Positions 2,814-47,513 of a stretch of DNA of 64,000 nucleotides are shown here, in pieces. The stretch covers positions 8,086-72,085 of the forward strand of contig JAJEGH010000014.1 in the NCBI GenBank assembly GCA_022819985.1, given 5' to 3'. The translations under genes and the position numbers were made by a program. This DNA is from Alphaproteobacteria bacterium. Its GTDB lineage: Bacteria > Pseudomonadota > Alphaproteobacteria > Bin65. Numbering within the stretch: the stretch's first letter is position 1; the number at the start of each line of letters is the position of its first letter. The notes under the pieces were generated by a model. That model worked only from the letters and a program-made list of their open reading frames with translations. It was not told the origin of the DNA and did not search any database.

Positions 2814-4616
2814 ATGAAGCGGCGGAACCTGATCGATGTCGCGCTGGGCGTCGAACCGCCCGATCTGGTCGTCAGATCGGCGATGCTGGTTAACGTGATC
2901 AGCCGCGAATTGCATCCCGCAGACATTCTGGTCAAAGGCAGCCGGATCGCGGCGGTTCTCGAAGCCGGCGGCGCCTATGGCCGGGACGTCCATGTCATCG
3001 AGGCCGAGGGCCGGTTCGCGGCGCCGGGCTTCATCGATCCGCACGTCCATCTCGAAAGTTCCATGATCACCGTGGCGGAATACGCGCGCGCCGTGATTCC
3101 GCGCGGCACCACGATGGTCGCGGCGGATCCCCACGAAATCGGCAATGTGCTGGGGCTTCCCGGCATGAAAGCCCTCTTCGATGAAGCCGGCACGGTCCCT
3201 CTGCGGGTCAGGTTGCGGGTGCCTGGACGGATTCCTGCGGTGCCGGCGTGGATGGAGACATCCAACGGTGAACTGAGCGTCGCTGACACCCGCGCCATGT
3301 TCGAATGGCCGGAGGCCCTTTGCCTCGCCGGCGACATCAACCCGAACCTGGTCCTCCGGCAGGATCGGGAACAGCTCGACAAATTCGAACTGGCCGACGA
3401 ACTGGGCGTGACGATCTCCGGCCAGTCGCCGGGTTTGAGCGGACGGGCGTTATCCGCCTTTGTCGCGGCCGGCCCCGAAGATTCCCATGTCGCAAGCTCG
3501 GTCGACGAAATCGTGGAAAACACCCGGGTGGGGATGCGAACGGTGCTGGCGTTGCGCCCGTCCCGGAGGCTTGAAGCGGCCCACATGGCGGAACTGGCCC
3601 GGCGTGTCGCCGAGGACAGGCTGGACACCAGGCTCTTTCAGGTCTGCACGGACGACATCCATGCCCACGATCTTCTCCATGAAGGCCACCTCGACCATCG
3701 CCTGCGCGCCCTGATCGAAGCGGGTTTCGATCCGGTCGAGGTTTTTCAATTCGCCACCTTCAACGCTGCCCAGGGTCTTCGCGTCGACCGCGACTACGGC
3801 AGTCTCGGCCCGGGCAAAATGGCCGACATCGTTCTGCTCGACGATCTCCGGGCCGTAACGGTCTCGACCACAATCATCGCGGGCAAGATCGTCTATGCGG
3901 ACGGAGAATACCGCGGACCCGGCCAGAGCATGAGCTATCCCGACTGGACAAAATCGACGATCCGCTACGCTGAACCTCTGACAGCAGCCGATCTTTCGCT
4001 GCGACCGCCGAACAATACCCACACCGCCACGGTGCGTTGCATCGAGGCGCCGGCCGGCAGGGGGAAAAAGACGGCGAAGGAAATCGAACTTCCGGTCCGG
4101 GACGGAGTTATCGTTCCCGCACCCGAACGCGGCATCAACGCGCTCGCCGTTGTCGAGCGGCACAAGGCAAGCGGCGAAATCGGGCGCGGGTTCGCGAGCA
4201 GCCTCAAGCTCCGGCGCGGCGCCATTGCCTGTTCGGTCAATCACGATGCGCATAACGTGATGCTTCTGGGCGCGAACCACAGCGATATGGCGCTGGCCGG
4301 CAACCGTCTCGCGGAAATCGGCGGCGGGTACGTCCTGGCATGCGACGGCGAAATCGTTGCCGAACTTGCGCTGCCCGTTGCCGGGCTCATGTCTGAAGCC
4401 GGCATTGAGGAGGTGGCTTCGGACCTCAGATCGCTCGAGGACGCATTGAACGGCGTCCTCGGTGCGGATTTGAGCGACAAGGCGCTGATCAATATGAATT
4501 TCCTCTCGTTGCCGAACATTCCGGACTACGGCTTCACCAACAAGGGGCTCGTCGCTTCGGACAAACGCATGCAACTTGTGGAGACCGTAATCGAAGAAGG
4601 AGGGAGAGTGATATGA
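2814..4616 (+). CDS. Adenine deaminase-like amidohydrolase
   Basis: Metal-binding amidohydrolase signature GFIDPHVHLESSM, then AADPHEIGNV. Length is about 600 aa, as in adenine deaminases. The ORF opens at 2760; the start at 2814 (MKRRNLIDV) is preferred but not certain. Confidence 0.78.
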   Translation: MKRRNLIDVALGVEPPDLVVRSAMLVNVISRELHPADILVKGSRIAAVLEAGGAYGRDVHVIEAEGRFAAPGFIDPHVHLESSMITVAEYARAVIPRGTTMVAADPHEIGNVLGLPGMKALFDEAGTVPLRVRLRVPGRIPAVPAWMETSNGELSVADTRAMFEWPEALCLAGDINPNLVLRQDREQLDKFELADELGVTISGQSPGLSGRALSAFVAAGPEDSHVASSVDEIVENTRVGMRTVLALRPSRRLEAAHMAELARRVAEDRLDTRLFQVCTDDIHAHDLLHEGHLDHRLRALIEAGFDPVEVFQFATFNAAQGLRVDRDYGSLGPGKMADIVLLDDLRAVTVSTTIIAGKIVYADGEYRGPGQSMSYPDWTKSTIRYAEPLTAADLSLRPPNNTHTATVRCIEAPAGRGKKTAKEIELPVRDGVIVPAPERGINALAVVERHKASGEIGRGFASSLKLRRGAIACSVNHDAHNVMLLGANHSDMALAGNRLAEIGGGYVLACDGEIVAELALPVAGLMSEAGIEEVASDLRSLEDALNGVLGADLSDKALINMNFLSLPNIPDYGFTNKGLVASDKRMQLVETVIEEGGRVI

Positions 4617-5599
4617 AACCGAAGAAATTCTGGAAACTGGGCCTCGCTGCTGTCGCGATGACGGCTTCGGCGGCGTCTTCGTCGTTCGGGGCGGACAACG
4701 TCAAGGTGATGTTCGACTGGATTCCCGGCGGCTGGCACGCCGCCTGGTACGCGGGCAAGGTGAACGGCTGTTTCGGCGACCGGAACCTGAGCGTTTCGCT
4801 GCAGCGCGGTTCGGGGGGCGTCGATACCGTGGCGAAGGTGGCCTCCGGGCTCGCAGACGTCGGGATGGCCGATCTCGGAACGGTGATGATCGGCGCGCAC
4901 AAGAACAAGGCCGGCGTGAAAGCGATTTTCCCCGTCTACATGGATAACCCGTTCGGGATCCTGTCGCTGAAATCCACCAAGATCGCCTCGCTGAAGGATC
5001 TGGAAGGATTGAAGCTGGCGGCCGGTCCGGGCGATTCCAACATCCAGATGCTGCCCTATGCGATGCAGCTCGCCGGAGCGGACTTCAAAAAGGTGAAGGC
5101 CGAGCGGGCGGATTTCTCCGCATTGCTCGGATTGCTTCTGCGGGAGAAGGTCGAGGCGTTCACAACGTTCCTGACAACCGCGCAAATTCTGAAGGCCGTT
5201 TCCAAGAACGCCGGCAAGGAAGTCGCGTTTTACCACTACGGCAGGGATTTGAAGATCTACGGCTCGGTCATCTTCGCGACCGACAAGTTCCTCAAGGAGC
5301 GTCCGGGGGTGGCGAAGCGGCTGATGGCCGGCATGAAATGCGCCTACGAAACGGCCCGGGCCAATCCCGATGCAGCGGCGGACGCACTGCTCGCCGCGTT
5401 CCCGTCGAAGAAGAGAGGCGCCGAACTGGCCAGCATCAGAGGCGGGATCATCCTGACCTTCGGAGCCGAAACCTACAAGAAGCACGGCTTCGACTGGGAT
5501 ATGGACCGGGTCGCCAGGACCTTTCAGCTGGCGCTGACCGCACAGGGAGAAAAGGTGGAAGGCGCAGCGGGCGCCGCCTATGTGCACATGTTCAAGTGA
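4613..5599 (+). CDS. ABC transporter periplasmic substrate-binding protein (NMT1/THI5-like, NitT/TauT family)
   Basis: N-terminal signal peptide (MKPKKFWKLGLAAVAMTASAASSSFGA). ATGA overlap with the preceding stop. Followed by a matching ATPase and permease. Confidence 0.75.
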   Translation: MKPKKFWKLGLAAVAMTASAASSSFGADNVKVMFDWIPGGWHAAWYAGKVNGCFGDRNLSVSLQRGSGGVDTVAKVASGLADVGMADLGTVMIGAHKNKAGVKAIFPVYMDNPFGILSLKSTKIASLKDLEGLKLAAGPGDSNIQMLPYAMQLAGADFKKVKAERADFSALLGLLLREKVEAFTTFLTTAQILKAVSKNAGKEVAFYHYGRDLKIYGSVIFATDKFLKERPGVAKRLMAGMKCAYETARANPDAAADALLAAFPSKKRGAELASIRGGIILTFGAETYKKHGFDWDMDRVARTFQLALTAQGEKVEGAAGAAYVHMFK

Positions 5600-5633
5600 A
5601 CTGCATAACCTTCGGCGCCTTCGGATACACGGG

Positions 5634-7622: not shown

Positions 7623-8818
7623 CGCTGGGCCCTTTCCCGAATGATCCGGAGAACGGTTTCGGCGGCAATCGCGCTCGGCTTGCGGCCGGGGACCGACAGC
7701 GTTCGCGCCACCGCACGAATACGCGCTGCCTGGGCGCGGCGCAACGCCGGATCGCGCAGCAGCGGCGCCAGGGCGTCGGCGAGAATTTCCGGCCGGCACC
7801 GCTCCAGAATGCACTCCGGCATGATCTCCTCGCCGGCCGCGAAATTGACCGCGGAAGCATAGGGCGAGTTCACGAGAAATCGCGCGAGCCGCCCTTCGAG
7901 CCGGGGCAGCTTGTAGGTCACGACCGCCGGCGTACCGGCGAAGGCCAGTTCGACCGTAACGGTGCCGGAGGCGGCGAGCGCCGCATCGGCCGCGGCGAAG
8001 GCGAGATATCTGGTCGCATCGGCGGGCAACGCAACCAGCGGCGCCGGCCAGTCCGCCGTCAGGGCAGACGCCAGGTCGCGGATCGAAGCCACGGTGGGCA
8101 TCAGGCAGACCGGCGCCAGGCCGACACTTTTCAGGCGCTGGATCGTCGCGCGGTACACGGGCAATAGCCGTCGCACTTCCTTGCGGCGGCTGCCGGGCAG
8201 CATGCAGAGCAGCGGGCTTGCGCCCTCGCCGGCATGGCGGTTGCGAAACCCGGCCACGTCCGCCGGGTCCGGCAGATCGGGCTCGGCTGCCGGGTGGCCG
8301 ACAAAGGTCACCGGCAGGCCGTGCGGCTCGAACCACGGCGCCTCGAAAGGAAAGATCGACAGCAGATGCGTCAGCCGCCCGGCGATGACCTTCGCCCGTC
8401 CGGGGCGCCATGCCCATACCGTCGGCGCCACATAGTGCACCAGCGTCTCGCCGCGCCGGGCCAGCCGCCGGCCCATATGGCCCGACAGGGCCTGGGCGTC
8501 GATCGTGACCACGCAATCGGGCCGGCGCCGGGCGATGTCGCGCTCAAGCTGCTTCATGCGCGCCAGGATGGTGCGCAACCGCGGCAGATAGTCGAGGCCC
8601 ATCACCGAAAACAGGTCGATGGAGAACAGGCTCTCCAGGCCGGCTTCCGCCATAGCCGGCCCACCGATGCCGCCGAAATCGACCTCATCTCCGGTCTGCC
8701 GCTTCAGCGCGCGGATCAGGTGCCCGCCGATCTGGTCGCCGGAAGGTTCGCCTACGATGAAATAGACGAGCGGCCGGCCGGCGCCGGGCCGGACCGGGTC
8801 ATGCGATGCGTTCGGCAT
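7619..8818 (-). CDS. lpxB: Lipid-A-disaccharide synthase
   Basis: N-terminus VYFIVGEPSGDQIGGHLIRAL is typical of LpxB. About 399 aa counted from the ATG at 8818. Sits downstream of lpxA-lpxI. Confidence 0.9.
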   Translation of the reverse strand: MPNASHDPVRPGAGRPLVYFIVGEPSGDQIGGHLIRALKRQTGDEVDFGGIGGPAMAEAGLESLFSIDLFSVMGLDYLPRLRTILARMKQLERDIARRRPDCVVTIDAQALSGHMGRRLARRGETLVHYVAPTVWAWRPGRAKVIAGRLTHLLSIFPFEAPWFEPHGLPVTFVGHPAAEPDLPDPADVAGFRNRHAGEGASPLLCMLPGSRRKEVRRLLPVYRATIQRLKSVGLAPVCLMPTVASIRDLASALTADWPAPLVALPADATRYLAFAAADAALAASGTVTVELAFAGTPAVVTYKLPRLEGRLARFLVNSPYASAVNFAAGEEIMPECILERCRPEILADALAPLLRDPALRRAQAARIRAVARTLSVPGRKPSAIAAETVLRIIRERAQR

Positions 8819-20768: not shown

Positions 20769-21875
20769 TCAGCCGGCAGCCTTTTCTTCGGCGGGCTGTT
20801 CTTCGGCCGCTTGCCCGCCCGCGCCCGGCGCTTCGGTGTCCTTCGCCTCGCCGTCCGGCGGTTCGGCGTCCTGTCCTTCCGCTTCCGGCGTTTCGGCAGT
20901 TTCCGCTGCGGCGTCAGCAGCCGTGTCCGGTACGCCTTCCGCCGCCGTTTCCCCGGCCGGCTCCGGAGCCGATTCCGAATCCGCTTCGGGGACCGTTTCC
21001 GGGGCAGCTACCGGGGCACCCTCCGGAGCCGGGCCATCGCCTTTTTCCGGTGCGCCGCCGGGCTCGGCGGACTCTGCCGGCTCGGTCCCGGCTGCGGCGG
21101 CCTCGCCCTCCGCGGAGGCGTCGGGCAACTCTTCGGGCAGCGGCGCCTCGGCCTCGCCCAAGTCGCCGCCGGACAGCGCCACTTCCTGCGCCAGCCCGTC
21201 CAGCACCGCGCCCCAGAAGAGTTCCATATAGATTTCGATGGCGCGCAGCGAATCGTCGTTGCCGGGCACCGGAAAGTCGATGCCGTCCGGGTCGCTGTTG
21301 CTGTCGATCACGGCGATCACCGGGATTTTCAGCTTGTTCGCCTCGGCAACGGCAATCGCTTCCTTGTTCGTGTCGATCACGACGACGATGTCCGGCAGGG
21401 CGGACATTTCCTTGATGCCGCCCAGCGCCTTTTCCAGCTTGTCGCGCTCGCGGGTGAGCTGGAGCAATTCCTTTTTGGTCAGGCCCTGGGTCTCTTCCTC
21501 GTTGCCGAGCTGTGCATCGAGGGCCTTCAGGCGGGCGATGGACCGCTGGATGGTCGCCCAGTTGGTCAGCATGCCACCGAGCCAGCGGTGGTCGACATAG
21601 AACTGGCCGCAGCGCTCGGCGGACTGGGCGATCATGCGCGACGCCTGGCGCTTGGTGCCGACGAACAGCACCCGGCCACCCGCCGCCGCCACCTCGCGCA
21701 CCGCATTCATGGCGCGCTGGAGCAGCGGCACGGTCTGCTGCAGGTCGATGATGTGGACATTGTTGCGCGCGCCGAAGATGTAGGGCGACATCTTCGGGTT
21801 CCAGCGGCGCGTGTTGTGTCCGAAATGAACGCCAGCCTCGAGCAGCTGGCGCATGGTGAAGTTCGGCATCGCCAT
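20769..21875 (-). CDS. rpsB: 30S ribosomal protein S2 with an unusually long acidic A/E/P-rich C-terminal tail
   Basis: [29 protein letters not shown] is a canonical S2 start. The conserved core ends near ...GAVLDGL and is followed by about 130 low-complexity residues. The ORF opens at 21911. Confidence 0.92.
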
Positions 21876-22248
21876 GGCATGTTCCTTTACCGGTTCGGCC
21901 GCCGCGGACATTCATCCGGCCCTTGGCCGTTTCGGCCATCGGAGTCCGGACACCGGAACGACAGAACCGGATTTCCCGGCCGCCGCAAATCCGCGTGAGG
22001 GGTTGACGGCGCAAGACCTAGGCTCGCAGCGGTCGAAGCGCAACGCCCGCGCGGCGGCATGCGGCAAATCTCCTGCCTGCGGGCCCGTCCGTGCTGGCGC
22101 GGCGCTCCCGGCGGGATCGTGCGGGGGGTGCCTGGGTCGCCGGCGCGGCCGGCCCGTTGCTTGGGCGCCGGCCGCCATGCTCTGCTGCGGCGCGAAGGCG
22201 CACTATTACAAAATGTTGACGATTCTGGGCGTGCGCCACAAAATCTTG

Positions 22249-22277
22249 TTGACAAATTTTCCTGTCGCCTTTATGGA
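22249..22277 (+). promoter_or_regulatory. Sigma70-like promoter candidate (TTGACA-N17-TATGGA), preceded by a second TTGACG copy inside a direct repeat
   Basis: TTGACA at 22249-22254, a 17-nt spacer, TATGGA at 22272-22277. ACAAAAT..TTGAC occurs twice (22208-22220 and 22238-22253). The patch is AT-rich within GC-rich DNA. Confidence 0.35.
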
Positions 22278-22283
22278 GACGCC

Positions 22284-22359
22284 GCACAGGTGCGAAAGAC
22301 GCGGACAGGCCCTGGCACAGCAAACCCGGCTGCACCCCGGTGCGGCCGGGTTTTGTTTT
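22284..22359 (+). ncRNA. Candidate small RNA of about 75 nt (promoter to intrinsic terminator); family not recognised
   Basis: Bounded by the promoter candidate above and a strong terminator hairpin. There is no ORF or RBS inside. The 5' end is only predicted. Confidence 0.25.
22325..22359 (+). terminator. Rho-independent terminator
   Basis: An 11-bp stem (CCCGGCTGCAC / GTGCGGCCGGG, with one G-U pair), loop CCCG, followed by TTTTGTTTT. Confidence 0.55.
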
Positions 22360-22390
22360 ACGGTATCGGCGGCGAAAACGGACGGTCCTG

Positions 22391-22826
22391 TCCTTCGGCG
22401 GGGCAGCAGGCTCCCCGGTCCGAAGGCAGTGCTCCAAACGCAAAGAAGGCGCCAGGTGCTTCGACGCGGACGTCCCTGCATGGCTCCGAAGAGCCCCCTG
22501 ACACCTTCTCTGCGGGTTTGCCCCGAAGGGCTCCCCACACGGTCTCGAACCCGAAGGTCCGGACCACGGGCTCGCCCTTGCAGGCTGCCCTACCGGTCCG
22601 CGTCCCCGAAGGTCCGCTTTCCGGCTGCCGGCTCGCCCGAAGGCTCCCCGGCTCCCGACCTCGACGACCGAAGCCGCCTGGCCGTTCCGCCTTCGATCCG
22701 GTCCCGAGGGCTCGGCTCTCCGGCTCAAGCGCCGATCGCCCGAAGGCTTTCGCCGCTTCCGCGACCGGCTTCCTTGCGGTCACCCATCGCGTGAATGGAT
22801 ACTGCTTCGCCCCCGCCGCCGAAGCA
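22391..22826. repeat. Dispersed array of CCGAAG(G) motifs (CCTTCGG on the minus strand) in non-coding DNA
   Basis: CCGAAG starts at 22420, 22486, 22523, 22551, 22606, 22637, 22668, 22740 and 22819, and six of these are CCGAAGG. There is one inverted copy, CTTCGG, at 22393. Several copies sit in short stems (GGCTC-CGAA-GAGCC, GCCC-CGAA-GGGC). Confidence 0.6.
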
Positions 22827-22857
22827 ACAAAAAATTACACCGGATCTTCGAAATTTC

Positions 22858-22964
22858 GGTGGATAACCAAGTAGTTAGCGGACAAATGACCTAAAATTTT
22901 TCCACAATTCGACACAAGCTCGGCAGATTTCCGCCGATTCCGCCTGTGGATAAAGTTATCCCCA
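22858..22964. promoter_or_regulatory. Cluster of four DnaA-box-like 9-mers in an AT-rich patch
   Basis: GGTGGATAA at 22858-22866 (reverse complement TTATCCACC), TTTTCCACA at 22898-22906, TGTGGATAA at 22945-22953 (a perfect TTATCCACA on the other strand), and TTATCCCCA at 22956-22964. Flanked by A/T runs (AACAAAAAATTACA, CTAAAATTTTT, AGAAATTTTCA). Confidence 0.5.
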
Positions 22965-23034
22965 AGAAATTTTCATCGGGAAGCGAACGGCGGCGCAGCG
23001 GGTGCCGGACAGCCGGCCGGGCAGGCGCGACCCG

Positions 23035-23826
23035 TTACCCGCCGTTCCGGTTCACAAGGGCGCGCGCATAGAGCGGATGGTGCAGGCTACGCACTTCGTG
23101 CTCGATGGCGAACAGCGGTGCCTCCGCCCCCGGCGCCGCGATTTCCACGAAGCGGTACTGGCTCGCATTGTCCTCGGCAGTGATGAGGCTGCGTTCGGCG
23201 AGCGCACGGTACGGGCCGGAAAAGTCCGCGGCGTAGACCGCCACATGGTGCCCGTCGTATTCGGCTGCGGGCGCATCGCTCTCGCGGAACAGGAAATGCT
23301 GGCCCGGCCCCACCGTCACCCGCGCGCAGCCGCCGTCGACCGCCGCCGGCGCCCCCATCACCGCGCAGTAGAACTGCGCGATGCCCGCCGCCGCCCGCTC
23401 GGGAACCGGCATGTCGAGGTAGGGAATACCCAGCGGACCGAAGCCGCCGCCGGCCGCGTGCGCCCGGAAGCGGTTGCCCCACGGGCAGGTCAGCGCGACA
23501 TGGCCGTTTTCGCGGCGCCACGAGAACTGCGTTCCGTCGAGCCGGGCGGCGACCCGGCGCAGCCGTTCCTCGAGCGCGTCCAGATCCGGCAGAACCAGGC
23601 CGATGACCCCGCGGAAGCGCTGCGGGTTTCCCCTCGGCAGGTGGAATTGCTGGCGGCCGGCGTTGATCCACATATTGTCGGTGCCGACCATCATATAGGG
23701 GTCGCGGGTCAGTCCCAGTCCGGCGACGTAGAAGTCCGTCGCCGTCTCCTGGTCCGGGACGGTGAGGTTGACATGCTCGAAGCAAACGATGTTGCCGACG
23801 TCCTGGGAAGCGGGATCGAAGCGCAT
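23035..23826 (-). CDS. Hypothetical protein, possibly a VOC (glyoxalase/dioxygenase-fold) family member
   Basis: 263 aa with coding-like composition. The N-terminal FEHVNLTVPDQETATDFYVAGLGLTRDP resembles a VOC beta-alpha-beta-beta-beta module. The family call is tentative. Confidence 0.55.
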   Translation of the reverse strand: MRFDPASQDVGNIVCFEHVNLTVPDQETATDFYVAGLGLTRDPYMMVGTDNMWINAGRQQFHLPRGNPQRFRGVIGLVLPDLDALEERLRRVAARLDGTQFSWRRENGHVALTCPWGNRFRAHAAGGGFGPLGIPYLDMPVPERAAAGIAQFYCAVMGAPAAVDGGCARVTVGPGQHFLFRESDAPAAEYDGHHVAVYAADFSGPYRALAERSLITAEDNASQYRFVEIAAPGAEAPLFAIEHEVRSLHHPLYARALVNRNGG

Positions 23827-25969: not shown

Positions 25970-26194
25970 TCAGTCCGGCAGGTCGATTGCCGGCCGGAAC
26001 GGGTCGTCATAACCCAGGACCGAGCCTTCCATCGCGCCGATGATCGAGGAGGCTTTCTCCGCCGGCGGAGCAGGCGACAGCACGGCCAGCGGCCGGCCGC
26101 GTTCGGTGATCGTAACCGGCTCGCGGTCCTCGCACATCTGTTCGATCACACGGAGGCATGTGGCCTCGAATTCGGCCGCGGCTATCGTTTTCAC
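25970..26194 (-). CDS. Phd/YefM-family type II antitoxin (no adjacent toxin gene)
   Basis: 74 aa. MKTIAAAEFEATCLRVIEQMCEDREPVTITERGRPLAVLSP is a typical Phd/YefM N-terminal domain. Only 28 nt separate its stop from the convergent purB stop. Confidence 0.8.
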   Translation of the reverse strand: MKTIAAAEFEATCLRVIEQMCEDREPVTITERGRPLAVLSPAPPAEKASSIIGAMEGSVLGYDDPFRPAIDLPD

Positions 26195-26318
26195 CGTCGT
26201 CCCCGTTGCAGCGTCGTGCAGGTTTCTAACTTACCGGCGACCCAGTCAAACCTGATTGGTTTCGGCAAGACGGCAAGTCCGGTCTTTGTCGTTCATAGGC
26301 TCTGAACCGATCACTTTG

Positions 26319-26347
26319 TTGTCAATTTTTGCCAAAGCCGTTAGTCT
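26319..26347 (+). promoter_or_regulatory. parDE promoter candidate (TTGTCA-N17-TAGTCT) placing the TSS at or next to the parD ATG
   Basis: TTGTCA at 26319-26324, a 17-nt spacer, TAGTCT at 26342-26347. The ATG is at 26354, and no Shine-Dalgarno sequence lies in between. Confidence 0.4.
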
Positions 26348-26353
26348 CTTTGC

Positions 26354-26593
26354 ATGAGCACCATGAACATATCGCTGTCCGAATCTCTCAAGTCCTTCGT
26401 TGAAGATCAGGTTGGCGCAAACGGTTACAGCACATCCAGCGAGTATGTCCGCGAACTGATTCGCAAGGACCGAGACCGCCTGCGCCTGCGCGCCCTCCTT
26501 CTCGAAGGCGCGGCCTCGCCGAAGGCCGGCATGGCCGATGCAGACTATTTCGACGAACTCCGTGCCCGGATCCACGAAGCCGGCCAGCCGTGA
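26354..26593 (+). CDS. parD: ParD/CopG-type ribbon-helix-helix antitoxin
   Basis: 79 aa. MNISLSESLKSFVEDQV...YSTSSEYVRELIRKDRDR is typical of ParD-like RHH antitoxins. Its stop overlaps the parE GTG start (GTGA). Confidence 0.85.
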   Translation: MSTMNISLSESLKSFVEDQVGANGYSTSSEYVRELIRKDRDRLRLRALLLEGAASPKAGMADADYFDELRARIHEAGQP

Positions 26594-34247: not shown

Positions 34248-35828
34248 ATGAGCGAAGAACGCGGCAGGAAGCCCGGAGAGCGGGCCGGACGGGCCGGGCG
34301 GCGGTCCGGCAGGGCCGGCGGCGGCCGGGAAAGCCGGCGCGCGGCGCGGACCGCCGGGCCGGTCGAGCAGCTGCGCGCGATCCGGCGCAAAATCCCCAGG
34401 GTCGAGCTGCTGTCGGCCGAGGGGCTGGAGCTTATCGAGCATAACGCCGACACGATCCTGGAAGAGGTCGGCATCGAGTTCCACGACGATCCGGAATGTC
34501 TGGAGATGTTCCGCGATGCCGGCGCGGACGTTGACGAAACGCGCGTCCGTTTTCCGCGCGGCCTCGCCCGGCAACTGTGCTCGACCGCGCCGGCGCAATA
34601 CACCCAGCACGCGCGCAACCCGGAACGCTCGGTGGAGATCGGCGGCGACCACACGGTGTTCGCGCCGGTCTACGGCCCGCCCTTCGTGCGCGACCTCGAC
34701 CGGGGCCGGCGCTACGGCACCATCGAGGATTTCCGCAACTTTGTGAAGCTCGCGTACCTGTCGCCCGCCCTGCACCATTCGGGCGGGACGGTGTGCGAGC
34801 CGGTCGACGTGCCGATCGCCAAGCGGCATCTCGACATGGTCTACGCGCATATGCGCCTTTCGGACAAACCCTTCATGGGCTCGGTCACCCATCCGGAGCG
34901 CGCCGCCGACACCGTCGCCATGGCGAAGATCCTGTTCGGCGACGACTTCGTCGACGAAAACTGCGTCTGCACCAGCCTGATCAACGCCAATTCGCCCATG
35001 GTGTTCGACGCCACCATGCTGGGCGCGCTCAAGACCTATGCCAAAGCCGGCCAGGCGACGGTGGTCAGCCCCTTCATCCTGGCCGGCGCCATGGCGCCCG
35101 TAACCGTCGCCGGCGTGATGGCCCAGACGCTGGCCGAGGCGATGGCCGGCATCGCCGTGACCCAGCTCTGCCGGCCGGGGACGCCGGTGGTGTTCGGCAG
35201 CTTCTCGAGCTCGATCTCCATGCAGTCCGGCGCGCCGACCTTCGGCACCCCGGAGCCGGCGCTCGCCCTGTTCGGCCTGGCGGCGCTGGCGCGCCGGCTC
35301 GGCCTGCCCTTCCGCAACGGCGGTTCGCTCTGCGCCTCGAAGCTGCCGGACGCCCAGGCAGCCTACGAAAGCGCGAACACGCTGATGCCGACGGTATTGG
35401 CCGGGGTGAATTTCGTGCTCCACGCCGCCGGCTGGCTCGAAGGCGGGCTGGCGTCGAGCTACGAGAAGCTGGTCATGGACGCCGACCAGCTCGCCCTGCA
35501 CCAGGTGATCGCCGGCGGCTACGACCTGTCGGAGAACGGCCAGGCGCTGAGCGCGGTGCGCGAGGTCGGCCCGGGCAGCCACTATCTCGGCTGCCAACAT
35601 ACCCAGGACAATTTCGAGACCGCCTTCTGGCGCTCGGCGGTCGCGGACAACAACAGCTTCGAGCAATGGCAGAGCGACGGTTCGAAGGACATCGTCGCGC
35701 GCGCCAACGAGCGCTGGAAGGCCATGCTGGCGAGCTACGAGGCGCCGCCGATCGACCCGGCGATCGACGAGGCGCTGATCGCGTTCATCGCGAAGAAAAA
35801 GGAGAGCCTGCCCGACGGGATCGGGTGA
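34248..35828 (+). CDS. MttB-superfamily (trimethylamine methyltransferase family) protein, non-pyrrolysine type
   Basis: 526 aa, uninterrupted (no in-frame TAG). Family-typical blocks: LSAEGLELIEHNADTILEEVGIEF, FAPVYGPPFV.D, NANSPMVFD, SPFILAGAMAPVT, GAPTFGTPE, KLVMDADQL, GPGSHYLG..HT. Arg-rich N-terminal extension. Confidence 0.9.
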   Translation: MSEERGRKPGERAGRAGRRSGRAGGGRESRRAARTAGPVEQLRAIRRKIPRVELLSAEGLELIEHNADTILEEVGIEFHDDPECLEMFRDAGADVDETRVRFPRGLARQLCSTAPAQYTQHARNPERSVEIGGDHTVFAPVYGPPFVRDLDRGRRYGTIEDFRNFVKLAYLSPALHHSGGTVCEPVDVPIAKRHLDMVYAHMRLSDKPFMGSVTHPERAADTVAMAKILFGDDFVDENCVCTSLINANSPMVFDATMLGALKTYAKAGQATVVSPFILAGAMAPVTVAGVMAQTLAEAMAGIAVTQLCRPGTPVVFGSFSSSISMQSGAPTFGTPEPALALFGLAALARRLGLPFRNGGSLCASKLPDAQAAYESANTLMPTVLAGVNFVLHAAGWLEGGLASSYEKLVMDADQLALHQVIAGGYDLSENGQALSAVREVGPGSHYLGCQHTQDNFETAFWRSAVADNNSFEQWQSDGSKDIVARANERWKAMLASYEAPPIDPAIDEALIAFIAKKKESLPDGIG

Positions 35829-47067: not shown

Positions 47068-47255
47068 ACACCCGACAACGATACTTCCCGGTTGCGTGGC
47101 AGGTTTCCTGGCTCACGGTTACCGGCCCTGGTGCGCTCGCCTTCCCGGCTTCTTGTCCAGTGGCGTTCGAGCGCGGCCAACCGTCTACAGTTGCGGGGAC
47201 AGCTCCGGACTCGATCGGCCGATCTCACCGGATTCCCTATTAAGCCCCTCCCCTT
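47068..47255 (-). promoter_or_regulatory. Cobalamin (B12) riboswitch controlling cbtBA
   Basis: The minus strand reads AATAGGGAATCCGGTGAGATCGG...CCGGAGCTGTCCCCGCAACTGTA...GCCACTGG...GCCGGGAAGGC...GCCAGGAAACCTGCC. This includes the conserved core and the B12-box (GCCACTG). It ends about 15 nt before the cbtB ATG. Confidence 0.9.
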
Positions 47256-47513
47256 CCGGTTCGGGACGCCAAGCCCGCAAGGATTTGCCCCATGACTCGA
47301 ACGCCGTCAAGCGTCCGGTCGCGGGGCGGCTCGAAATCGGGGGGCTTGTTCCTGTCGCGCGTTCCGGCAATTGACCGGGCGCGCCCGAATCCCTAGCGTC
47401 CCGGCCGCAGGGTCCGACGAAGGGCGCCGGTCGCCGGCAAAGAGCATTGGGCGCCCGCGCATTCGCCCGAGGCCTCGACCGGAGGCGCATACGGAAAGGG
47501 AGCGGCAACCGCA

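Follow-up and report, generated by a model that had tools for sequence, protein, structure and literature searches.

The locus considered here raises the question of what kind of element is marked by a dense array of CCGAAG hexamers in the 1123-nt gap (21912-23034) between rpsB and a glyoxalase/VOC-family gene in an alphaproteobacterial genome (assembly GCA_022819985.1, contig JAJEGH010000014.1, of which positions 8,086 to 72,085 were analysed; this 64-kb stretch is called the window, and coordinates are counted from its first letter). A first-pass annotation of the window had described the array and had offered as explanations a highly structured non-coding RNA (ncRNA) or a long untranslated region (UTR) read from the minus strand, an array of protein-binding sites, or a decayed tandem repeat. 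Its leading option, the structured minus-strand ncRNA, is the one favoured by conservation, by a strand-asymmetric fold, and by G.U pairs, compensatory changes and loop swaps: with a probability of roughly 0.7, the array is the most conspicuous portion of a stand-alone gene that encodes a large structured candidate ncRNA whose promoter is probably controlled by DnaA.

The array itself was described accurately. The nine plus-strand copies start at 22420, 22486, 22523, 22551, 22606, 22637, 22668, 22740 and 22819 and the single inverted copy lies at 22393, exactly where they had been placed, and six of the nine extend to CCGAAGG. The earlier rough estimate that fewer than one copy would be expected by chance is also borne out: when the rest of the window is used as background, 0.33 copies of CCGAAG are expected per 436 nt per orientation, the Poisson probability of nine or more copies is 9e-11 (about 3e-8 when corrected for window number), and the next densest 436-nt segment holds three copies in the same orientation. 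Over the whole 64 kb, CCGAAGG occurs 35 times, compared with 17.7 +/- 3.9 in shuffles. Elsewhere in the window, three minus-strand copies of CCGAAGG lie within 170 nt (5457, 5609 and 5618; 5457-5624), overlapping an open reading frame (ORF) at 4613-5599, and plus-strand CTTCGG reaches a peak of five copies in 436 nt within the rpsB coding sequence.

On the minus strand each copy reads CUUCGG, and the annotation had proposed that these sites form C(UUCG)G tetraloops in short stems. The stems that flank the array sites have a mean length of 4.4 bp (10, 3, 6, 3, 2, 6, 4, 5 and 1 bp), compared with a mean of 1.7 bp at the 97 other CUUCGG sites of the window, so the proposal holds for the array in general. 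It has to be modified for the copy at 22420, which has a flanking stem of 1 bp and pairs instead with the inverted copy in a long hairpin of the variable 3' tail (CCUUCGG at 22420-22426 with CCGAAGG at 22392-22398, a pairing present in the window, L001 and L002, where the hairpin is followed by GUUUUCG), and for the copy at 22819, which lies in a poorly conserved 5' hairpin (Helix 1) that pairs in only 76-78% of cells and is broken in L006, L008, L087, L007 and L093. The extent of the feature needs a similar correction, in that the array is real but the interval assigned to it falls short of the element, whose conserved core is listed in Table 1, and misses an adjoining block of DnaA-box matches altogether. 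The core carries seven of the CUUCGG sites (plus-strand CCGAAG at 22486, 22523, 22551, 22606, 22637, 22668 and 22740), with flanking stems of 2-6 bp, together with two hairpins that have GCAA tetraloops and one that has a UCCG loop, and its 3' domain, closed by a 17-bp helix, is near-invariant in sequence across all homologues. Most hairpins of the fold model are capped by C(UUCG)G and a few by GNRA or UCCG loops.

Homologues of the element were reached by several routes. A search with the VOC-like protein led to eight species-level genomes in which the array lies just downstream of the VOC gene; these are labelled as Rhodospirillaceae or as alphaproteobacterial metagenome-assembled genomes (MAGs), and several of the record names are sponge-linked (Spongia_Bin9, IrcVar). 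Tracing VOC homologues through other assemblies yielded seven further lineages, metagenome contigs scanned for exact 23-mers contributed only four contigs, and a divergent homologue, L093, was reached through spurious ORFs that overlap the element; in all there are 16 distinct close homologues and the one divergent one. In the complete relative OY762427.1 the locus lies at 2.99 Mb of 3.82 Mb. The element is known from a clade of mostly sponge-associated, uncultured Alphaproteobacteria, and it does not accompany the VOC homologues, 69-74% identical, of MAGs that carry a Gammaproteobacteria or Thiotrichales label. It is present in one copy at each related locus, and nhmmer finds it nowhere else in the window; these single copies and the four contigs of the 23-mer scan tell against dispersed palindromes of the REP/BIME type. 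A plasmid or phage origin was rejected, since blastn against PLSDB returned nothing and no viral contig shared an exact 25-mer with the element.

The core is recovered by nhmmer in full-length, uninterrupted homologues with E values of 1e-121 to 1e-133. Its nucleotide identity between the window and its relatives is 88-94% (only 78% for L007, owing to a 50-nt insertion), while the third codon positions of the VOC genes of the same relatives are 65-74% identical; the core therefore evolves more slowly than the synonymous sites of its neighbour, a difference in apparent rate which establishes strong purifying selection. A 75-nt block near the 3' end is 100% identical among the nine sequences that were aligned first, and in larger alignments it has isolated one-base differences, each in single sequences. 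Indels of 1, 2 and 50 nt within the core disrupt every reading frame, and no start codon is conserved, the AUG of the 3' domain being AGG or AAG in L006 and L087. The annotation had judged the ORFs of the gap to be non-coding, and none of them, including those over the core, has the signature in G+C content at third and second codon positions (GC3/GC2) of the window's real genes or matches Pfam. Homology to a protein, which the annotation had named among the findings that would overturn its proposal, was found neither in Pfam nor in a protein search with the longest core ORF, whose only matches were ten ORFs without a name or a Pfam domain, all of them on this element; these are almost certainly spurious gene calls. 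By these comparisons the element is established as a single-copy, evidently non-coding unit. In public assemblies, predicted proteins of 80-244 aa with neither a name nor a Pfam domain overlap the RNA (L086 5396-5776, L088 4883-5563, L089 1186-1746 and proteins P0121-P0130); the three that have locus coordinates lie on the strand opposite to the RNA.

The window core and the window VOC gene differ in their closest relatives: for the core, identity is higher with L003, L088 and L086 (93-94%) than with L001 and L002 (88-89%), while the VOC gene is closest to L001 and L002 (92.7%), both of which share the downstream rpsB context and have an RpsB that is 99.6% identical. This mismatch hints at recombination within the locus.

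Decay, whether of a tandem repeat or of a repeat-protein gene that has become a pseudogene, would leave the array without present function; this suggestion draws on the resemblance of the hairpin modules to one another (repeat families D1-D4) and on insertions at one point of the RNA (window ~22617), at which 50 nt have been duplicated in L007 (6232-6281) and L091 and about 28 nt have been inserted in L093 (~440-467), each insertion adding a CUUCGG hairpin by copying a neighbouring module. To judge from the alignment this point is a hotspot for independent module gain, so that internal module duplication did occur. TRF nevertheless detects no array, the motif occurs in all three reading frames, there is no Pfam match and no named or Pfam-annotated protein homologue, and the slower evolution relative to the neighbour's synonymous sites excludes a functionless relic, which leaves decay as a scarcely credible explanation.

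The determination of which strand carries the function, and of whether it does so as RNA, depends on the fold and on the pattern of base-pair changes. The minus-strand fold has z = -5.15 relative to dinucleotide shuffles and the plus-strand fold z = -1.89, a difference which is partly due to the tetraloop bonus. Many G.U pairs are invariant in the proposed helices, including three in the 17-bp helix that closes the 3' domain, and because these would be A.C mismatches on the other strand the minus strand is taken to be the RNA strand. Compensatory change was evaluated on a curated set of local hairpins, with the divergent L093 added to the alignment. With L093 included, 16 pairs are changed on both sides and yet remain paired, compared with 3.8 +/- 1.7 in shuffles (none of 500 reach 16), and when the partners are slid by 1-3 columns only 0-4 compensatory pairs are obtained. 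In L093 alone, 15 double changes retain pairing and 4 do not; at least one of the 4 (268:288), together with several single-side failures in a GCAA hairpin, looks like local misalignment. The comparison thus establishes helices that appear to have been kept by compensatory substitutions.

The loops themselves also vary in an informative way. In L093, one UUCG loop is replaced by GAAA, a GCAA loop is replaced by GAAA, and another UUCG loop is replaced by CUCG; CUCG and UUCG alternate among close relatives as well. Such swaps between loop classes on stems that are kept imply structural hairpin caps, as opposed to a DNA site or a loop-specific protein site, and the over-represented heptamer is on this evidence identified as a structural tetraloop plus its closing pairs. 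The same observations bear on the possibility, raised by the annotation, that the CCGAAGG sites are bound on duplex DNA by a sequence-specific protein in one orientation and that the symmetry of their flanks is incidental. Nine same-strand copies whose spacings are conserved between species, and a motif which is nearly invariant, are what such an array would present. The self-complementarity of the flanks, at 4.4 bp against a background of 1.7 bp, the compensatory change of the stems while the motif stays, the exchange of the motif for GAAA or CUCG loops at single positions with the stem kept, the use of G.U pairs, which are meaningless in duplex DNA, and a conserved unit far larger than the motifs all argue against a binding array, and the compensatory changes in particular make it highly improbable.

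Alternative folds were considered. The RNAalifold consensus was set aside as unsatisfactory, with several tetraloop hairpins opened for long-range pairs, and its long-range helix of AAGGGC with GCCCUU is contradicted by L093, which favours a local GGGC/GCCC helix. An invariant single-stranded GAAGGCG (22688-22694; RNA 137-143) is perfectly complementary to CGCCUUC (22445-22451; RNA 380-386), which is the 3' strand of the invariant 17-bp helix, so that GAAGGCG would compete with the GAAGGUG strand of that helix; an alternative RNA conformation, all of whose positions are invariant, is possible in the model.

If the element is an RNA, it must next be asked whether it belongs to one of its neighbours, acting in cis either on rpsB, as its long 5' leader, or on the VOC-like gene, as its 3' UTR. 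Both genes lie on the same strand as the element, and in L093 the block upstream of the core starts at the stop codon of the preceding gene, with no terminator between. The neighbours are not constant, however: among the 11 lineages screened for it, rpsB stands next to the element in just 4 (the window, L001, L002 and L007), while in other lineages a convergent sox/HbpS-like cluster lies downstream, on the opposite strand, and the upstream gene, which is VOC in 16 genomes, encodes a TRAP transporter DctM subunit in L093. In most relatives a hairpin followed by a T-run lies after VOC and before the block, and the VOC homologues of other clades (69-74% identity) lack the element. Moreover, rpsB has its own leader (RF01815), about 430 nt downstream of the core and separate from the array; the two share the intergenic gap and the strand, but the core occurs without rpsB in most relatives. 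An extension of the rpsB leader is rejected on this synteny, and the RF01815 model matches the leader and not the array. A UTR of either neighbour is quite improbable. Because the hairpin and T-run separate VOC from the block in most relatives, a promoter of the candidate ncRNA's own inside the block is probable.

That block is AT-rich, with a G+C content of 45-53% compared with 67% for the genome, and it holds matches to the DnaA box. A scan of the whole window with the consensus TTATCCACA, one mismatch at most being allowed, yields five matches, four of which fall within 107 bp (22858-22964) in the block. The offsets of these boxes from the core start are -134, -123, -76 and -36 in every one of the 16 close homologues, L088 and L091 deviating by 1 nt at most, while the sequence between the boxes varies. 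The block is retained in L093, where the 28-nt stretch AAATTTCTTGGGGATAACTTTATCCACA is identical and boxes 3 and 4 are nearer to the consensus. A four-box block stands upstream of the core in 17 of 17 genomes, also where the flanking genes differ, and because block and RNA have been kept together through rearrangements on both sides they are regarded as one unit. A -10-like hexamer, TGTAAT in the window (22834-22839) and CAYAAT in others, ends about 4-8 nt before a conserved TTGTTGC, which would place the start of the RNA near 22830. With box 4 over the -35 position, occupancy by DnaA would gate synthesis, and the level of the RNA would follow the replication-initiation status.

A cluster of DnaA boxes also suggests the principal rival to the ncRNA reading, namely that the locus controls replication at the level of DNA, as an origin or a DARS- or datA-like site, or, in a variant, that the G-rich conserved block serves through an R-loop-forming transcript, as ColE1 RNA II does, and not through a trans-acting RNA. 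Four box matches at fixed spacing in 17 genomes, the integrity of the unit across different gene neighbourhoods, the adjacency of the AT-rich block to a region with 41% G and 28% C on its minus strand, and a local GC skew of -0.2 to -0.27 are all in keeping with this. The DARS core has three boxes, of which I and II are opposed and 5 bp apart, II has the full consensus, and III points in the same direction as II (PMC6868365). The present cluster resembles DARS1 and DARS2 of E. coli as a non-coding DnaA-box cluster, away from an origin, with an opposed adjacent pair of which one box has the full consensus, and it differs from them in that its inverted pair is 2 bp apart, its other boxes alternate in orientation at distances of about 47 and 87 nt, no adjacent third box points in the same direction, and no structured RNA gene is coupled to DARS. 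CcnA of Caulobacter crescentus, which is 182 nt long and CtrA-driven, is an earlier case of an ncRNA gene inside an origin (PMC8959179). CcnA is comparable as an alphaproteobacterial ncRNA gene among sites of replication or cell-cycle master regulators, with expression that is coupled to the cell cycle, but the present candidate is about 400 nt long, its sites are DnaA boxes, and it has no origin-type skew switch; no TTAA-N7-TTAA motif of the CtrA type was noticed on reading the block, although no pattern search was run.

In the 64 kb examined, the DnaA-box cluster expected of oriC is present and the sign change in GC skew is not: between about 4 kb and about 40 kb the cumulative skew goes down steadily, with neither a minimum near 22.9 kb nor a change of sign for some 20 kb to the left and right of the locus. 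The genes of both flanks share one strand (rpsB, tsf and pyrH; VOC and a 209-aa ORF), no dnaA, dnaN, hemE or parAB was seen in the neighbourhoods, and reading of the block near the boxes recognised no repeated 13-mer or DnaA-trio, although no formal search was made. The locus is thus probably not the chromosomal origin. Against a replication-control element of any kind stand the absence of a canonical G-quadruplex motif, the 2-bp spacing and the layout unlike those of DARS, and the compensatory substitutions and G.U pairs, for which a pure DNA element would have no need. This explanation is accordingly considered unlikely.

The downstream limit of the candidate ncRNA is approached through a G+C-rich palindrome, resembling a bidirectional terminator, whose plus-strand form, with a TTTTGTTTT tail, is strong and whose minus-strand form, with a UUUGCUGUG tail, is weaker, and which lies about 92-121 nt past the core in 11 of the 16 homologues; it is likely, from this arrangement, to be the outer 3' limit. 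The transcript would be about 400 nt long if it ended with the core and about 510 nt long if it reached this shared terminator. The palindrome would also terminate a convergent plus-strand gene for a candidate small RNA (sRNA), which has promoter-like elements, an invariant TTGACA (22249-22254), a 17-nt spacer and TATGGA (22272-22277), followed by a 5' hairpin CGCAC-AG-GUGCG, a conserved single-stranded stretch and the strong shared terminator with its TTTTGTTTT tail. It is kept in 11 of the 16 homologues and is absent from L004, L005, L086 and L087, and in Rfam it has only a weak terminator-type match; as a gene which is not always alongside the ncRNA, it may be independent of it. A direct repeat, ACAAAATGTTG / ACAAAATCTTG (22208 and 22238), lies just upstream of the candidate sRNA promoter.

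Several considerations weigh against the ncRNA reading. The covariation statistics depend almost wholly on the one divergent sequence, L093: the 16 close homologues, among which there is too little variation for covariation, by themselves give two compensatory pairs, no better than shuffles. The helix at RNA 116-133 was drawn after L093 had been seen, and without it the count falls to 12 compensatory pairs. RNAalifold and the single-sequence minimum free energy fold disagree in several regions of the middle third, and a constraint at the DNA level might account equally well for a 3' domain that hardly varies in sequence. A consensus promoter scan found nothing on the minus strand, and by consensus the promoter is weak, with a -10-like hexamer and no -35; DnaA binding is predicted from consensus matches alone; the start and ends of the RNA are drawn from sequence alone, and its 3' end may lie at the end of the core or at the terminator; and a function in scaffolding or protein binding is conjecture.

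The search for a known family to which the element might belong was made at several levels. A scan of the window against Rfam 15 at gathering thresholds detected the rpsB leader and, elsewhere, a cobalamin riboswitch and PYLIS_3, but nothing else and nothing on the core; at permissive settings (E up to 10) the window gap, L007 and L087 had only scattered and inconsistent matches of 10-22 bits. ARAGORN found nothing, and a transfer-messenger RNA or tRNA-like RNA was rejected. No description of the element was found in literature searches. The best reading of these comparisons is a candidate new family of structured ncRNA, restricted to one clade and without a match in Rfam.

Among known systems, those that appear closest in kind are the large 'ornate' bacterial ncRNAs OLE, ROOL, GOLLD, raiA and HEARO, all of which are Rfam families and whose functions are unknown or only recently coming to light. 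Like them, the candidate is several hundred nucleotides long, has many helices capped by stable tetraloops (UNCG, GNRA), is conserved to a degree that rivals protein genes, and is stand-alone and lineage-restricted with no obvious mRNA target; unlike them, it matches no Rfam model, comes from a different host clade, and has a far narrower known distribution. No ornate ncRNA is known to have a DnaA-box array. A looser analogy exists with the sequestering sRNAs of the CsrB/RsmZ type, which are likewise about 350-450 nt long and consist of a string of short stem-loops repeating one motif, with their own promoter and terminator (predicted in the present case) and modules gained by internal duplication. 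The unit repeated here, however, is a structural C(UUCG)G tetraloop and not a loop-displayed GGA, and there is no Rfam match to the Csr/Rsm families. A GGA sponge of the CsrA type was accordingly rejected, since GGA is not enriched (16 compared with 10.7 +/- 2.8 in shuffles) and the recurrent loop is UUCG. Recognition of the loops by a specific protein is disfavoured because the UUCG loops can be swapped for GNRA.

The features of the gap and its flanks are collected in Table 1. The gap had been described as gene-free; besides the array, it contains the Rfam rpsB leader, the DnaA-box-like cluster, and the promoter and terminator pair on the plus strand.

Table 1. Positions of the features in and around the rpsB-VOC gap, in window coordinates
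Feature	Position	Strand	Basis or remark
rpsB	20769-21911	-	flank of gap
Ribosomal protein S2 (rpsB) leader, Rfam RF01815	21877-21999	-	40.5 bits, gathering score 40
Convergent candidate sRNA gene, ~80 nt	22249-22362	+	sequence, terminator
G+C-rich palindrome, bidirectional-terminator-like	22322-22353	.	terminator scan
Variable 3' tail	22354-22433	-	conserved only in window, L001, L002
Candidate ncRNA, conserved core, 397 nt	22434-22830	-	alignments, nhmmer, fold, conservation
5'-terminal hairpin (GCUUCG...CGAAGC) with the 22819 copy	22805-22826	-	variable
AT-rich conserved block, presumed promoter region	22831-22990	-	directly upstream of core
DnaA-box match 4, TTATCCACC (TTATCCACA in L093)	22858-22866	-	at would-be -35 position
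DnaA-box match 3, TTTTCCACA (CTATCCACA in L093)	22898-22906	+	consensus scan
DnaA-box match 2, TTATCCACA, full consensus	22945-22953	-	consensus scan
DnaA-box match 1, TTATCCCCA	22956-22964	+	inverted pair with box 2, 2 bp apart
Glyoxalase/VOC-family gene	23035-23826	-	Pfam

Some further features were observed in the window and its relatives. RpsB is 380 aa long and has a C-terminal extension of about 125 residues which is acidic, Ala/Pro/Glu-rich and of low complexity (~20786-21150). The cobalamin riboswitch (RF00174, 101.5 bits) lies at 47081-47288 on the minus strand. The PYLIS_3 match (mttB pyrrolysine insertion sequence; 35331-35427 on the plus strand, 38.3 bits against a gathering score of 38) is borderline, lies inside the 526-aa ORF at 34248-35828, and probably marks an MttB-family methyltransferase gene and not a true PYLIS. 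Pairs resembling toxin-antitoxin systems (PhdYeFM/PIN, ParE) stand beside purB in relatives (L086 248-897; L087 917-1482), and small ORFs of similar size occur at the same place in the window (25970-26593).

Large, well-folded bacterial ncRNAs without a catalogued family are uncommon, and several of those described earlier proved to have unexpected functions. The element, if it is such an RNA, would be as conserved as a protein gene and would have helices backed by compensatory change; its importance is limited by a known distribution of one clade, within which it accounts for the spurious "hypothetical protein" calls made at this locus in public symbiont assemblies. Because of its size, its near-invariant loops, linkers and 3' domain, and its modular, tetraloop-rich build, the RNA would be expected to act in trans, as a folded scaffold or a protein-binding RNA and not as a short antisense regulator. 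The rigid array of initiator sites points to a connection, open to test, between the status of replication and an RNA effector. A more ambitious proposal, which is tentative and more doubtful than probable by a wide measure, is that block and RNA form one regulatory device, in which the occupancy of a non-origin locus by DnaA switches the synthesis of a large, G-rich folded RNA. This RNA would report on the state of replication initiation or feed back on it, through an R-loop at its own DnaA-box locus or through a replication or cell-cycle factor that it binds. If this were true, slow-growing symbionts would possess a layer of cell-cycle control, without a described counterpart, in which an RNA is coupled to DnaA.

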